Below the pieces are notes generated by a model, which was given only the letters and a program-made list of their open reading frames with translations, was not told where the DNA came from and made no database searches. Of a stretch of DNA of 64,000 nt, positions 44,856-64,000 are shown piece by piece (within the stretch, counting starts at the first letter, position 1; each line of letters begins with the position of its first letter). Position numbers and translations under genes: made by a program. Origin of the DNA: Escherichia coli (GTDB taxonomy: Bacteria; Pseudomonadota; Gammaproteobacteria; Enterobacterales; Enterobacteriaceae); NCBI RefSeq assembly GCF_044324785.1, contig NZ_CP172127.1. One strand, written 5' to 3'.

Positions 44856-45649
44856 ATCAGCTCCTTTGCACGGAAATAATGCCACAGTCACAACAAACCC
44901 GAACCCACTATAATTTATTTATGCTAAATCAATGGGTTGTAACAAAATTTTTAATGAATATAAAACCATGGTCAGTCCATGCTTATATGCAGGACTTATC
45001 ACCTTCTTATTAAGTCGCAATGTCTCATGGAGGTGCGAAGATGCTGCAATATTACAGGCGAGAAGGGGAACCAAATTTTGCCCACCTATTTAACACACCC
45101 CTACATTATGAACAAGGAATTTAGGATTTTTATCATTTATTAAAATGTTTCCTACTTGACTATTAAACCAAAAAACAATTTATCAATTGATTATTTCCTT
45201 GTAAAAAAAGAACGTATGACCATGTTATTAATAAATAAAACACGTAAATAATGGTGATGTTGTTTTGTGATTAACTATTTAAGAGTGGCATAATAAACAA
45301 GTTGACAATTTCTATGTAAAGAAGAAGAAAATAATAAAATTTTAGCGGTGACTATTGAATGATATGATAGTTGTGGTGTTGATTATTTCTGGTAATGAAT
45401 GCGGAATTAAATCTGGCCGGATTGTATTTTTGCTATATCTATTTTTCAGGAGATTATTATTAAATATAAAAATAACAATGGTGATTATCTCCGGTTGACC
45501 TGGAGTCACGTATGCCAGCGAGTGCTTTCTTCCGGGCCTTCCTTCACTTCAGAGAAAAAGAGGCAATCATCAGGCTCTTTTTGAGTCATATGCGCCGATA
45601 ATCAACTGTCTTGAACGTAAAAATTATGGAGCAACATGATGCTACGATT

Positions 45650-45880
45650 CATTTCACTCTTCGTTCTTTCTGAGCATTGCGTTCAGGATGGTCAGCAATT
45701 TACGCATACTGTCAACCAGCGCCACTTTTTTGGTTTTTCCGGCTGCTGACAGATGCATGTAAAATGCCTTTATCACCGGATTAAACCAGGTTACCACAAG
45801 CGCTGCCATGTGCAGGGCTGCTCTTGCCTCCGTACGCGCACTGGCGTCGTTCGGCCAGCAGATATGTGTGGGATAACAGG
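45650..45880 (-). mobile_element. C-terminal remnant of an IS110-family transposase (pseudogene fragment)
   Basis: Minus-strand translation ...ARTEARAALHMAALVVTWFNPVIKAFYMHLSAAGKTKKVALVDSMRKLLTILNAMLRKNEE* resembles the conserved C-terminus of IS110/IS116/IS902 transposases; the frame is closed by a stop just upstream. Confidence 0.45.
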
Positions 45881-45994
45881 GATGTTATGTGAACTGAACT
45901 GTGTTTTGTTAGCGGGGGGATGTTTATTGATGATTCGGGAGTGTTTAAGACCTGATGGCGTTATGCTCCCAAGTTTATTTTATATAAAGATCCA

Positions 45995-46025
45995 AAAGCA
46001 AAAACCCGCCTTGTGGGCGGGTTCT
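45995..46025 (-). terminator. Putative intrinsic terminator ending the minus-strand island operon
   Basis: Hairpin acccgcc-ttgtg-ggcgggt; on the minus strand it is followed by a T5 run, downstream of the DUF4942 gene. Confidence 0.5.
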
Positions 46026-46166
46026 TTAGAATAGTGGTGCCGGAATCGGAATCGAAAATTTCTTTTATCATATTGATATTAATATAATTTGTTTGGTTTG
46101 ATTAAAAATGTACCCTCAATTATACCCGCAGTCCCTTTTGATATCGAAAGGGAATCACACTCGGGA

Positions 46167-47009
46167 TCAGGCTGAGAGCACAGAAGGAAAGTACCTGGCT
46201 ATTATATCGTTAATTCTGTCAATCAGTTCCAGCCTTTTGAAAGTGATGTGTGCAGATCCCTTCTTAAAGTATTTAATGATGAACATCTCGTCTTCATAGC
46301 GCTCTTTACCCTGAACGGACTGGATGTGACCATCCAGACGAATAGTGATGTTTTCCCGGTTGTCGGGGATCGGTTTGCCGCTGAACAGATGTAGCATTCT
46401 TTCCAGGTCGACGAGTCGGTCAGTCTGTTGCCCGGTGATAAGATGAAACCCCCACCGGTCCCACCTCACCAGGTTGTTGACGATAATTTTACTGCCAAAT
46501 TTGCAGGGGCAATTGGTTTTGTAATTCCAGCTCAGTCCCCTGAAGACGTTGATCACCCCTCGCTCAAACACCTCATCCTTATTCTGGTGTAGTTGTTCAA
46601 ATGTGATCAGAATGTTCGCTTCACTGATTTCCGGAAAATTATCGTACTCCAGTGACCGGTACCATGTATCACGGGCCTGTGCATCCATTAAGGAAAGCAT
46701 CCCTGAACGTTGCATCAGGTCACGCCAGATTTCGCGATCGAGATTGCGTGTGATGGCTTTCATTGCGGTTTCCGGTTTCTCCATCAGCCAGCAGCCGCAG
46801 CGAAAATCCTGTTTCATGGCCCAGCCCGGGGCGGCTTTACCGCCAATACTTTCTGTCATTGCTGATATTTCAGCCAGTTGCCGGATAAGTGTGTCGATTT
46901 GCAGCAGTGTACTCTTTCGTACAGCCAGAATGTGGCGGATATTGGTTGAGCAGATAACGTCCGTATGCCCGGTGACCACTTCCGGACGGGAGATTGTGAT
47001 GTCTGACAT
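46167..47009 (-). CDS. DUF4942-family protein (island-associated, function unknown)
   Basis: 280-aa ORF in the position and orientation typical of CP4-like islands distal to the CbtA toxin; family assignment is from recall. Confidence 0.55.
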   Translation of the reverse strand: MSDITISRPEVVTGHTDVICSTNIRHILAVRKSTLLQIDTLIRQLAEISAMTESIGGKAAPGWAMKQDFRCGCWLMEKPETAMKAITRNLDREIWRDLMQRSGMLSLMDAQARDTWYRSLEYDNFPEISEANILITFEQLHQNKDEVFERGVINVFRGLSWNYKTNCPCKFGSKIIVNNLVRWDRWGFHLITGQQTDRLVDLERMLHLFSGKPIPDNRENITIRLDGHIQSVQGKERYEDEMFIIKYFKKGSAHITFKRLELIDRINDIIARYFPSVLSA

Positions 47010-47093
47010 TATCGGTTTCCCTTTTGGTTTATAAACGAAAACGCCAGCCCTGTTCAGGCTGACGTCAGTGGAATGAAGTATGGTGAGTGATAT

Positions 47094-61920: not shown

Positions 61921-61998
61921 GGGGGATAACAGGCAGCAGAGTGCCGCCGGCAGGCCGGAGATTGCGTCTGCTGTGGGCGAAGGGCCAGTGGTTAAAAA

Positions 61999-62205
61999 TT
62001 ACGGACGGGACTGTGCAATACGCGCCTGCAGCCAGGCTTCCACTTCACTTTTCAGCCAGCGGGAGCTGCGGCCGAGTTTGATGGGAGCCGGAAAGGCCCC
62101 ATCCTTGATGAGCTTGTAAAACCACTTATCGGTCAGGCCGGTCAGCTGAGTGATAAACGTCATATCGACCATCTGGTCATCCATCAGCGAAACTGGGGTG
62201 GTCAT
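61999..62205 (-). CDS. alpA: AlpA-family phage/island transcriptional regulator (excisionase-like HTH)
   Basis: 68 aa; FITQLTGLTDKWFYKLIKDGAFPAPIKLGRSSRWLKSEVEAWL matches the recalled AlpA family. Confidence 0.8.
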   Translation of the reverse strand: MTTPVSLMDDQMVDMTFITQLTGLTDKWFYKLIKDGAFPAPIKLGRSSRWLKSEVEAWLQARIAQSRP

Positions 62206-62588
62206 AAAAATCTTCTCCGGATGTTGTTAATCTCAGCCGGCGTTGATGATGAAAACAACGCACCACCTTCACCGGCATAACAACCGGGGAGAAACGTAAA
62301 AAATCAGTAGGGGAATATTCCTGCCAGGAGAGAAACTGTTGTGTACAGGCAATACAGGTTGTCTGTTTTGTCAGTGAAGCCGGTATAAACGGAAGATGAT
62401 TTTGTGTTGCCGGAATATGGGATGGCGTTTTGCCGTGACAGGATCAGTATTTTCAGTGATGATTATTACTGTGCAGGGGAGTACCGGAGATAAACCACGC
62501 CCTGTACCTGCCAGAGCGGAGGTTTGTATTGACTGAACGGAAGATAAAGCGAGGTAAACACTGTTGCGGTGAGCGGAGAAGACTGAGA

Positions 62589-63380
62589 TTATTCTCTGTA
62601 ATTACAAACAACAGTGATCTGATCCGGTTTTTTTACCGTTACGGGTTTCCGGGGATCAATTTTATAGACCGGGGTAATGACCACGCCGGAATTTATGGAG
62701 AAAAGCGGGATCCAGCAATAAACGTCCGGATATTTCTGTGTCTCCGGAATACCTTTTGTGCCAGAGGCCATCAGATCTTTAACGCTCACGAAAAATGACT
62801 TCCGCAGATCAAAAAAGTACTCGTTATATATCACATCCTTTGCCAGCAGGATGACTGCATTACCAACAGCCGATTTTACAGGTGTTTCATCAGGTGGATT
62901 ATCGTGATTGTATATTGTTCTTTCTATATAAATAAAACAGGCATATTTCGTCTTCTCCCCGGATAGTTGCATCTGGTATTCGCAAATGTCTTTGATATAC
63001 CGACTTTCAACCCTTCCAATCATCTTATCCCGGCGATAGTGTCTTTTATGTTTCAGCGCGTACAGAACACCATTTGAACTGTCAAACTCCAGGACACTTC
63101 TGGTGAAAAGTTTGTTTTCCCAGATCTCCAGACAATACTTCTCTGCACTGACGACATTGCGTTTGTGGGGAAGATTCCGTTGATACACTCCATTTAATAA
63201 GCGTGACTGCAGTTCGCCTGCAAGTTGATAGTAACAGTTAATGTCATTAAGGACAGGTGCTGTGGCGTTGAGTAATGTGTTGATTACCTTAGAGCGCGAA
63301 AGTTTGTGGGTATGACAGTACTCATCCACAATTCGCAGTGTCTCATCACTGGTCATATTGAAAGTTATACGTGTTGTCAT
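62589..63380 (-). CDS. Hypothetical protein in the integrase-proximal slot of the island
   Basis: 263-aa ORF, AT-rich, no family recognised by inspection; occupies the position between alpA and the presumed integrase end. Confidence 0.4.
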   Translation of the reverse strand: MTTRITFNMTSDETLRIVDEYCHTHKLSRSKVINTLLNATAPVLNDINCYYQLAGELQSRLLNGVYQRNLPHKRNVVSAEKYCLEIWENKLFTRSVLEFDSSNGVLYALKHKRHYRRDKMIGRVESRYIKDICEYQMQLSGEKTKYACFIYIERTIYNHDNPPDETPVKSAVGNAVILLAKDVIYNEYFFDLRKSFFVSVKDLMASGTKGIPETQKYPDVYCWIPLFSINSGVVITPVYKIDPRKPVTVKKPDQITVVCNYRE

Positions 63381-63710
63381 GATGAAGTTTTCTGTTAATC
63401 ATACTGGTTGATATGCATAACATTTCATAAAAAATACTGTTAATTCATATAATTGATTTTTTGACTGGTTTTATCCTCGTGTGGTGGAAAGCAGTATTAC
63501 TGCCACTGTAGTCAGCATAAATCTATCACACAGAACCACCGAAAATGAAGCATTGCTCAGGGGGAAGCTGCCACTCGTATGAGTTCTCTGAACCATGATA
63601 ACCAGTATTTTTCGTTTTGGGTGATTTGTTTATCGTTACAGCTACATACAGTTCATGTACCATTAAAAAATAATAAAGGTTAATTAGTATTATTTATAGA
63701 AGTATGTTTA

Positions 63711-63756
63711 TGTAATTCTACCGTGTAAATGAACCCTGTAATTCTACCTTGTAAAT
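63711..63756. repeat. Tandem direct repeat of about 20 bp (tgtaattctacc[g/t]tgtaaat) in an AT-rich intergenic region
   Basis: Copies at 63711-63730 and 63737-63756, with further tgtaa-type half-repeats to about 63900. Confidence 0.4.
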
Positions 63757-64000
63757 ACACCTTGTAACCAAGTCCTGTAGAAGTCTGTCTCATAGAAGTA
63801 TCTGTGCAGTGATATTCTCTGTAGTAGTACTTGTAACTCTGTTCTTAACTCTCTCTTCAGTAATGTAGTCCCGCAACACCTGAATATAAATCTGTAATGT
63901 TCACACACTGACTGTAACGTGCTTTGTTAAGTAATGTCTGCTATTTTTTTTTCTGTTATTTTTCCTGTTGTTTTCTGTATTTTGTTGTATGGTGTAATAA

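Follow-up and report, generated by a model that had tools for sequence, protein, structure and literature searches.

A group 2 capsule locus beside a PAI V-type island in the pheV-yghD segment of an Escherichia coli chromosome

Introduction

In extraintestinal E. coli, the succession of T2SS genes, kps capsule genes, a pheV-derived repeat, a PAI with a P4-like integrase and pheV itself is already established. It has been published for PAI V of strain 536 and, as 'PAI-V' with intB and 22-bp repeats, by Arredondo-Alonso et al. 2023. PMC10272209 describes kps beside pheV with the T2SS upstream, and a PAI with a P4-like intB and 22-bp repeats that is either present or absent downstream of kpsF; repeated excision events of PAI-V were inferred there. 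Here we analyse such a locus in a window, by which we mean the whole stretch of 64,000 nucleotides of E. coli DNA under study (contig NZ_CP172127.1 of assembly GCF_044324785.1). In common with PAI V of E. coli 536, 'PAI-V' and the PAI-pheV of ExPEC, it has the insertion at the pheV 3′ end with, in the relatives, a P4-type integrase beside the tRNA, a short pheV-derived repeat that marks the far end just after kpsF, an Ag43-type autotransporter, and the T2SS and kps genes on the far side. Compared with PAI V, the nearest relatives of the window hold a shorter derivative of 30-34 kb, and compared with the 55-kb form they are devoid of the cit/malX block, which extends from ISEc38 to the IS3-type pseudogenes. 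Within the window, the only cargo consists of a LysR regulator, a hydrolase and an MFS transporter, and the distal repeat has degenerated. One close relative, FP4, has the cargo reported for PAI V536, with pgt phosphoglycerate-transport and pix/pap-type fimbrial genes.

In the group 2 kps locus at the pheV/serA region, region 3 (kpsMT) and region 1 (kpsFEDUCS) stand in convergent arrangement around a serotype-specific region 2 that is rich in AT. The window has the same three regions, the AT-rich PR1 upstream region and the yghD-pheV location, and its layout shows nothing unusual in this comparison. The third close system comprises CP4-44, CP4-6 and CP4-57 of K-12. Their gene order, which we take to be GTPase (yeeP/ykfA), flu/Ag43, DUF905, DUF932, antirestriction, RadC and DUF987, followed by CbeA/CbtA (yeeU/yeeV), the yeeW fragment and an AlpA-family regulator, is shared with the window in both families and order. 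Unlike these prophages, however, the window island is attached at pheV and not at their K-12 sites, has no phage structural genes, and carries alpA at a position that is not adjacent to the integrase. It is a genomic-island backbone with variable cargo and not a prophage.

Materials and methods

Relatives were drawn from 5,426 complete E. coli genomes, none of which is identical to the window; the best match reached 99.8%. Five close relatives (TUM9803, NRZ14408, F1022, G5 and FP4) were followed rightward. Coordinates of kps and core genes are PGAP annotations transferred from the 99.97%-identical TUM9803. The distal repeat was located in a BLAST comparison with the spacer between pheV and yghD of K-12 and confirmed by exact 22-mer and edit-distance searches.

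Results and discussion

Comparison with K-12 and with the relatives identifies the region as the pheV-yghD segment of an E. coli chromosome. The left 45 kb of the window are 99.97% identical to TUM9803 and carry, ahead of kps, the genes glc, sslE, gspC-M and yghD. The core genes of the T2SS-beta cluster end with yghD (gspM, 29010-29546, plus strand; annotation transferred from TUM9803). In BLAST against K-12, homology breaks off at the yghD stop (29552) and picks up again at 45988-46056, which corresponds to 48 nt of pheV downstream flank together with the pheV 3′ end. The K-12 site is empty, with yghD 148 bp after pheV and neither kps nor island.

The kps module (29553-45989) spans 16.4 kb at 42% GC and stands where K-12 has 101 bp of spacer between pheV and yghD. 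It includes the PR3 and PR1 regions, the promoter positions being taken from the literature. The kpsMT genes (30603-32053, plus strand) and kpsSCUDEF (36935-44855, minus strand) were transferred from TUM9803 with PGAP annotation, and between them lie the two plus-strand genes of region 2 (32240-36857), with products of 1169 and 329 aa and a GC content of about 30%. The first gene of region 1, kpsF (43872-44855, minus strand), was recognized by its Pfam SIS and CBS domains and is called a KpsF/GutQ family isomerase by PGAP; a longer open reading frame with a GTG start extends to 44891. Thus, kpsFEDUCS and kpsMT surround an AT-rich region 2 beside pheV and the T2SS, as in a group 2 locus, the assignment resting on transferred PGAP annotation and, for kpsF, on Pfam. 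The module carries neither an integrase nor tRNA repeats at its flanks, and it probably moves between strains when its conserved flanks recombine homologously.

The initial annotation had described region 1 of kps followed by about 1.3 kb of AT-rich DNA with an IS remnant, and this holds: the spacer between kpsF and the first island gene (44856-46166) measures 1311 bp, with 37.3% GC over 44892-46166. Its kps side (44856-45989, 37.2% GC) includes the PR1 promoter region, published as lying about 225 bp upstream of kpsF (PMC8960920), and the same spacer is found in strain S87 between kpsF and an intact pheV. The IS remnant (45654-45836, minus strand) encodes the C-terminal ~60 aa of an IS110-family transposase. 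Its Pfam match was below threshold, and its identity was decided by the NCBIfam profile NF033542 (positions 282-342 of 343, E = 2.4e-8); PGAP annotates it as a partial IS110 transposase in five records. As a candidate for a scar of the island junction it was rejected, since it remains with kps in S87, where kps abuts intact pheV and there is no island. The fragment belongs to the kps flank.

Directly after the kps side of the spacer comes the native downstream flank of pheV (45990-46034, minus strand), which shares 94% identity with the pheV-yghD spacer of K-12 and contains an intrinsic terminator, seen on the minus strand at 46026-46000 as a terminator-like hairpin of 11 pairs with a T-run. 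It adjoins a distal direct repeat, an att remnant at 46035-46056 (minus strand). This repeat, TTCGATTCCGAtTCCGG-CACCA, reproduces the last 23 nt of pheV in degenerate form, its 22 nt showing 21 identities, one substitution and one deletion. It occurs only once in the window, where no match is expected by chance. A mismatch-only search of the window with the pheV 3′ end, allowing up to three mismatches, gave no match because the repeat has a 1-nt deletion. No second pheV-derived repeat was found near yghD. The statement in the initial annotation that no tRNA is visible was borne out insofar as ARAGORN found no tRNA gene in the whole window; the 22-nt pheV fragment had been missed. Each relative has exactly two copies of the repeat, one per island end (the second in pheV) and none inside. 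With island-free pheV sites in K-12 and S87, and with pheV flank followed by island DNA in the window, the anatomy is that of an insertion at a tRNA 3′ end. The island starts at 46057 and not at kpsF, and it now separates the pheV terminator flank from pheV.

From this anatomy, a P4-like tyrosine integrase would have inserted the island into the 3′ end of pheV and duplicated the last ~23 nt. One copy would have stayed in pheV, past the right end of the window, and the other, now degenerate, would be the one at 46035-46056, directly against the original terminator flank. Both the role of the integrase in the insertion and a lasting ability of the island to excise are suggested by the PAI V literature, where integrase-dependent excision into a circle is reported for PAI-V (PMC10272209). 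Present excision competence is uncertain, as the distal repeat is imperfect with its deletion and substitution.

The two modules also occur apart. In S87, kps is found with intact pheV and no island, and in Res13-Lact-ER02-39 the island is found without kps. Both occur together in the window and in 639 genomes that contain the whole 341-bp junction. A third junction type was seen in an ST131 genome, where the same kps-side flank and repeat are fused to a different island end. With the empty K-12 site, all four states of presence and absence exist, which indicates two independent modules side by side. We therefore conclude, with a probability of about 0.9, that two independently acquired modules, the kps locus and a PAI V-type island, adjoin in the pheV-yghD segment. 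Behind this conclusion stand direct observations, namely the boundaries and the repeat, together with the gene families and the polymorphism in presence and absence.

The initial annotation had instead proposed one composite, tRNA-anchored island comprising kps and the CP4-like module, with alpA close to the integrase and the integrase and tRNA 2-3 kb past the window. The two parts are indeed contiguous and only 1.3 kb apart, and reviews list the capsule as 'PAI-pheV' cargo in many ExPEC strains (PMC7545054). Nevertheless, kpsF is parted from the CP4-like module by the pheV-derived repeat and the native terminator flank, placing kps outside the integrase-bounded island. The separate occurrence of kps and island and the position of the integrase in the five relatives, 10.9-47 kb from the window end and never 2-3 kb, also argue against a single unit. 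In CP4-57-type elements, alpA is located near the integrase, which would fit the composite island; all in all, we regard such an island as highly improbable. What stands of the proposal is the anchoring at pheV, together with the tyrosine integrase and the flanking direct repeat seen in the relatives. Likewise, kps does lie in the pheV region, but outside the repeat-bounded island.

The island part of the window (46057-64000, minus strand) is the left 17.9 kb of a pheV-integrated P4-integrase island of the PAI V type and runs on past the window end. As had been noted initially, the spacer is followed by a minus-strand CP4-like module, which Pfam matches confirm from DUF4942 through the GTPase. 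Its first gene encodes a DUF4942 protein (46167-47009, minus strand; PF13708, E = 1e-65). It is followed on the same strand by the CbtA toxin (47513-47890; PF06755, E = 5e-63), which forms a type IV toxin-antitoxin pair with the CbeA antitoxin (47937-48311, minus strand; PF06154, E = 6e-54). A backbone similar to yeeT/yeeS/yfjX/yfjQ of CP4 elements (48387-50923) then contains DUF987 (48387-48608), RadC/JAB (48677-49153), antirestriction (49169-49654), DUF932 (49745-50563) and DUF905 (50654-50923) genes, all on the minus strand and all above the Pfam threshold. An adhesin of the Ag43/AIDA autotransporter type (50958-53879, minus strand; Pfam AIDA, AC_1, Autotransporter and ESPR) and a YeeP/YkfA-like GTPase (54177-55112, minus strand; MMR_HSR1, E = 3e-15) complete the module, whose Pfam matches otherwise range from E = 1e-27 to 1e-65. 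These genes, from DUF4942 through the GTPase, form the conserved distal backbone of the island.

Beyond the module lie cargo genes assigned by Pfam and PGAP, namely a LysR regulator (minus strand), an alpha/beta hydrolase and an MFS transporter (both plus strand; 55279-58840). The following stretch (58841-61302) is decayed and holds only gene fragments, according to PGAP pseudogene calls, among them a C-terminal IstB-like fragment (60688-60822) with a Pfam IstB_IS21 match below threshold (E = 5e-4). An alpA-family HTH or excisionase-like regulator (61999-62205, minus strand) matches Phage_AlpA with 37 bits against a cut-off of 21 (E = 3e-9); its match to the NCBIfam 'excise' domain is weak. 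Taken together, CbtA/CbeA, RadC, antirestriction, DUF932, DUF905, DUF987, Ag43, GTPase and AlpA all score above the curated Pfam cut-offs, in keeping with a CP4-like backbone. The initial annotation had the module ending in alpA. This gene is present, but the window continues with a gene called 'YagM family protein' by PGAP (62589-63380, minus strand), for which no Pfam family match was obtained, and with AT-rich DNA, and in relatives the island goes on for 11-47 kb.

The window island is collinear with TUM9803 and NRZ14408 at 99.8% identity, and there the island ends at an integrase and pheV. Each of the five relatives, when followed rightward, has this DNA running up to a P4-type tyrosine integrase with Arm-DNA-bind_3, Phage_int_M and Phage_integrase domains. 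It adjoins pheV and yqgA in NRZ14408, F1022, G5 and FP4. In TUM9803, one of the two closest relatives, it borders only a displaced 3′ half of pheV, followed by more stacked islands. A feature annotated there as 'tRNA-Ser' by PGAP was rejected as a tRNA gene by ARAGORN; it consists of the last ~50 nt of pheV, from the anticodon arm to the CCA end, fused to ICE DNA. When the intact pheV of TUM9803 was sought 85-134 kb rightward, another PAI and no core genes were found. The source strain of the window could be as complex.

The window itself lacks the integrase, which starts 10.9 kb past the position of the window end in TUM9803, 12.3 kb in NRZ14408, 36.0 kb in F1022 and G5, and 47.2 kb in FP4; island sizes of 30,274, 34,322 and 55,442 bp were measured. 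Extrapolated from the 30-34 kb islands of the nearest relatives, the integrase would be expected about 11-12 kb past the window end, with pheV at about 12-14 kb, within a range of 11 to 47 kb over the relatives. The initial annotation had placed both just beyond the window end, to be reached by extending 2-3 kb rightward, and would have been given up if neither appeared within a few kb. When this extension was carried out in the relatives, the integrase, pheV and the repeat proved to exist, but none of them within 2-3 kb, and formally nothing of the kind lies within a few kb. With more than 10 kb between it and the integrase, alpA is no marker of the island end.

In the relatives, hha-like, YagK/YfjJ-like and DUF7828 zinc-ribbon genes join alpA and the yagM-like gene in a conserved part. 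Between this part (alpA to DUF7828) and the integrase, four of the five have a block of variable cargo and IS elements. An alternative reading is that of two islands in tandem, with alpA to DUF4942 as an older CP4-like element that has lost its integrase, and with the integrase-proximal segment (hha, yfjJ-like genes, IS elements and integrase, as in the relatives) as a later insertion at pheV. The gap of at least 10 kb between alpA and the integrase, which is filled with different DNA rich in IS elements, the high variability of the island middle between strains and the stacking at pheV seen, for example, in TUM9803 would all suit this arrangement. However, no internal pheV-derived repeat with up to four edits was detected in TUM9803 and NRZ14408, nor in F1022, scanned except for ~1 kb, and for this reason the tandem arrangement was largely rejected. 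An internal repeat could have been lost through IS activity. On the other hand, the same left-end module is paired with the same integrase end in strains that differ in cargo, and this recurrent pairing fits one backbone with a variable middle. We consider tandem islands very unlikely. In a single PAI V-type island, the variable, IS-riddled cargo sits between the conserved parts.

Beyond correct annotation these results matter little. Their use lies in the fixed boundaries, with the island starting at 46057, kps separate from it and the IS110 fragment on the flank of kps. Searches for the integrase and tRNA have to reach 11-50 kb and not 2-3 kb away. The boundaries also bear on the scoring of island size and cargo, including the question of whether capsule genes belong to that cargo, where some reviews place them.

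In AT-rich DNA at the right edge of the window, five TGTAA-containing units with an exact spacing of 13 bp and a strand bias were observed at 63711-63775. In relatives, a hha-like gene and two YagK/YfjJ genes follow directly after the 13-bp repeat array, and YagK/YfjJ genes have a relative in the replication initiator Gp2 of inoviruses. A role of the repeats as binding sites for a regulator or for H-NS/Hha, or no function at all, would be just as compatible with the array. It is conceivable, though very unlikely in our estimate, that the island is not simply decayed and passively inherited but keeps a small replication or maintenance module made up of putative iterons (63711-63775) and an initiator. 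If the array and the YagK/YfjJ genes did have these roles, an excised circle could persist until it is mobilised.

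Boundary of the pheV island and its repeat

The island that is integrated at pheV and carries a P4-type integrase (PAI V type) begins inside the window, at 46057, a boundary that is absent from the initial annotation, and runs past the window end. The pheV-yghD spacer of K-12, where 148 bp lie between pheV and the yghD stop codon, was compared with the window. Homology to K-12 stops at 29552 (the yghD stop) and returns at 45988-46056 with 94% identity. Within this returning segment, 45990-46034 corresponds to the sequence downstream of pheV, including the terminator hairpin (terminator-like site at 46026-46000, minus strand), and 46035-46056 is a distal repeat, 22 nt that differ from the last 23 nt of pheV by one substitution and one deletion. 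Because of the deletion, this repeat escapes mismatch-only searches. The 22-mer has a single occurrence in the window, against a chance expectation of zero. Island DNA lies to its right, and the DUF4942 gene starts 110 bp on. In an edit-tolerant search covering TUM9803, NRZ14408 and F1022, the last except for about 1 kb between its two loci, exactly two pheV-derived copies per relative were found, one at each island end, and no internal copy within the island.

The capsule locus as a separate module

The window is E. coli chromosome; over its left 45 kb it shares 99.97% identity with strain TUM9803, whose annotation was carried over to window coordinates to name the genes there. The left part holds yghO, glcCDEFGBA, sslE, pppA and gspC-M/yghD (yghD end at 29546). 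Next come kpsMT, a pair of AT-rich region-2 genes and, on the minus strand, kpsSCUDEF, in which kpsF lies at 43872-44855. GC content falls to about 30% in region 2 (32240-36857), which has just two genes, with products of 1169 and 329 aa, both annotated as hypothetical.

An AT-rich spacer of about 1.3 kb with an IS remnant had been described after kpsF, and this was confirmed: the spacer to the next gene (44856-46166) is 1311 bp long, with 37.3% GC over 44892-46166. At 45654-45836 (minus strand) it contains a C-terminal remnant of an IS110 transposase (positions 282-342 of the 343-position NCBIfam model, E 2.4e-8); its Pfam hit, taken alone, falls under the threshold. Part of the AT-richness is due to the PR1 region, the region 1 promoter complex with H-NS, SlyA and IHF sites, which is located some 225 bp upstream of kpsF within the AT-rich DNA (PMC8960920).

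A 341-bp junction query (window 45840-46180) was used to compare genomes; 639 carry at least 80% of it and others match parts only. A presence/absence polymorphism is directly observed. S87 has kps without the island (kpsF, IS110 fragment, intact pheV, yqgA), Res13-Lact-ER02-39 has the island without kps (yghD, pheV flank, repeat, DUF4942), an ST131 genome has the kps flank and repeat joined to another island end (AbiEii/DUF6088), and K-12 has neither, pheV being followed by yghD. Two clean breakpoints stand out when the junctions are aligned, at about 45989/45990 and at 46056/46057, which places kps outside the repeat-bounded island. kps and the island are separate modules, and the IS110 fragment is part of the kps flank, not of the island junction.

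The architecture of T2SS, kps, island and pheV is already known. In K1 strains, kps adjoins pheV with the T2SS upstream, and downstream of kpsF lies either intact pheV or a ~52-kb "PAI-V" with the P4-like integrase intB, 22-bp pheV repeats at its bounds and multiple inferred excisions (Arredondo-Alonso et al. 2023, PMC10272209). In another study, speC and kpsF (or yghD) were treated as the housekeeping genes that flank the site of integration at pheV (Biggel et al. 2020, PMC7686366). The initial annotation had placed group 2 capsule loci in pheV-associated islands, which reflects a looser usage of "PAI-pheV", under which a review lists capsule genes and Ag43 in many ExPEC strains (PMC7545054).

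The integrase-pheV end in relatives

No tRNA gene was found in the 64-kb window by ARAGORN, and no genome identical to the window was found in the complete-genome collection searched. The 19-kb query is covered to 80% or more in ninety-four genomes, and five of these were traced rightward. TUM9803 and NRZ14408 are closest, each with 99.8% identity over the full query. As 32 of the 36 TUM9803 differences are confined to two short patches, the backbone is essentially the same.

In NRZ14408, the integrase starts 12.3 kb and the pheV 3' end lies 13.8 kb past the window end; intact pheV and yqgA come after the integrase, which is P4-type, with Arm-DNA-bind_3, Phage_int_M and Phage_integrase domains. 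The distances are 10.9 and 12.3 kb in TUM9803, where the integrase is followed by no more of pheV than its final ~50 nt (reaching through the anticodon arm), and then by the parA end of an SPI-7-type ICE. In both F1022 and G5 they are 36.0 and 37.5 kb, with added cit/acnB/malX cargo, which in F1022 is followed by integrase, pheV and yqgA. In FP4 they are 47.2 and 48.7 kb, and its cargo (pgt and a pix/pap-type set) is the set reported for PAI V536. Island lengths in relatives are 30.3, 34.3 and 55.4 kb.

The observation behind the initial annotation stands, and its interpretation is partly supported. The pheV tRNA, the integrase type and the flanking repeats were borne out in relatives; the integrase, expected with the tRNA within 2-3 kb of the window end, lies 10.9-47.2 kb past it in these five genomes, and kps is separated from the tRNA-anchored unit by the distal repeat and pheV flank.

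PGAP calls a 78-nt "tRNA-Ser" in TUM9803 (locus L001, 46476-46553), some 12.3 kb to the right of the position that matches the window end. This call was rejected: the sequence consists of the final ~50 nt of pheV, from anticodon arm to CCA end, joined to the ICE at its parA end, and ARAGORN finds no tRNA. It is a displaced att repeat miscalled as a tRNA gene. A further PAI (locus L013, record 990000-1039000) lies 85-134 kb past this truncated pheV, so at least three elements are stacked at pheV in TUM9803; it carries ireA, papGII, tia, sul2, aph(3')-Ia, aph(6)-Id, aph(3'')-Ib and a group II intron.

Gene content of the island

The minus-strand CP4-like module is present as described, with DUF4942, CbtA, CbeA, DUF987, RadC, Antirestriction, DUF932, DUF905, an AIDA/Ag43 autotransporter and an MMR_HSR1 GTPase, each above its Pfam cut-off. 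Cargo genes follow (LysR, alpha/beta hydrolase, MFS transporter), and after them some 2.5 kb of decayed DNA. This stretch (58841-61302) has no intact gene; all that is left in it is a frameshifted fragment and, at 60688-60822, a 45-aa remnant of an IstB-like C-terminus. It is a scar left by past IS activity. A 205-aa ORF before alpA gave no family match. The module had been said to end in alpA (61999-62205; Phage_AlpA 37 bits, cut-off 21); a yagM-like ORF (62589-63380) lies beyond, and alpA is not the island's end.

Recent IS insertions are the main difference between the window and its nearest relatives. The Ag43 gene is intact in the window and interrupted by ISEc12 in NRZ14408, which also carries IS1414 (locus L003, 22306-24608 and 37289-38497); F1022 has IS2 past hha (locus L002, 34770-35998).

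The two patches of TUM9803 differences, 48865-49412 and 50330-50354, fall in the radC, antirestriction and DUF932 genes. Over 591 bp (48840-49430) the window shares 99.7% identity with a paralogous CP4-like copy that lies 1.4 Mb away in NRZ14408, and the enclosing 48800-49500 is just 96.3% identical to the NRZ14408 pheV-locus copy. This pattern resembles gene conversion between paralogous CP4-like modules.

Proposed history and a repeat array

It seems likely that the P4-like integrase recombined the island attachment site with the pheV 3' end, which would have duplicated about 23 nt. Decay would have followed, with IS insertions, pseudogenes, a deletion flanked by IS elements in ST38-like relatives and degeneration of the distal repeat. 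As kps has no recombinase genes or repeats, it probably entered the pheV-yghD spacer separately and may spread via homologous recombination in the conserved flanks.

Near the window end (63700-64000), five TGTAA-containing units with exact 13-bp spacing lie on a single strand at 63711-63775. The surrounding 1-kb AT-rich intergenic region has 10 TGTAA against about 2 expected. In relatives, the genes directly after it are one resembling hha and two of the YagK/YfjJ type (inovirus Gp2-like). The array could be iteron-like or could bind a regulator.
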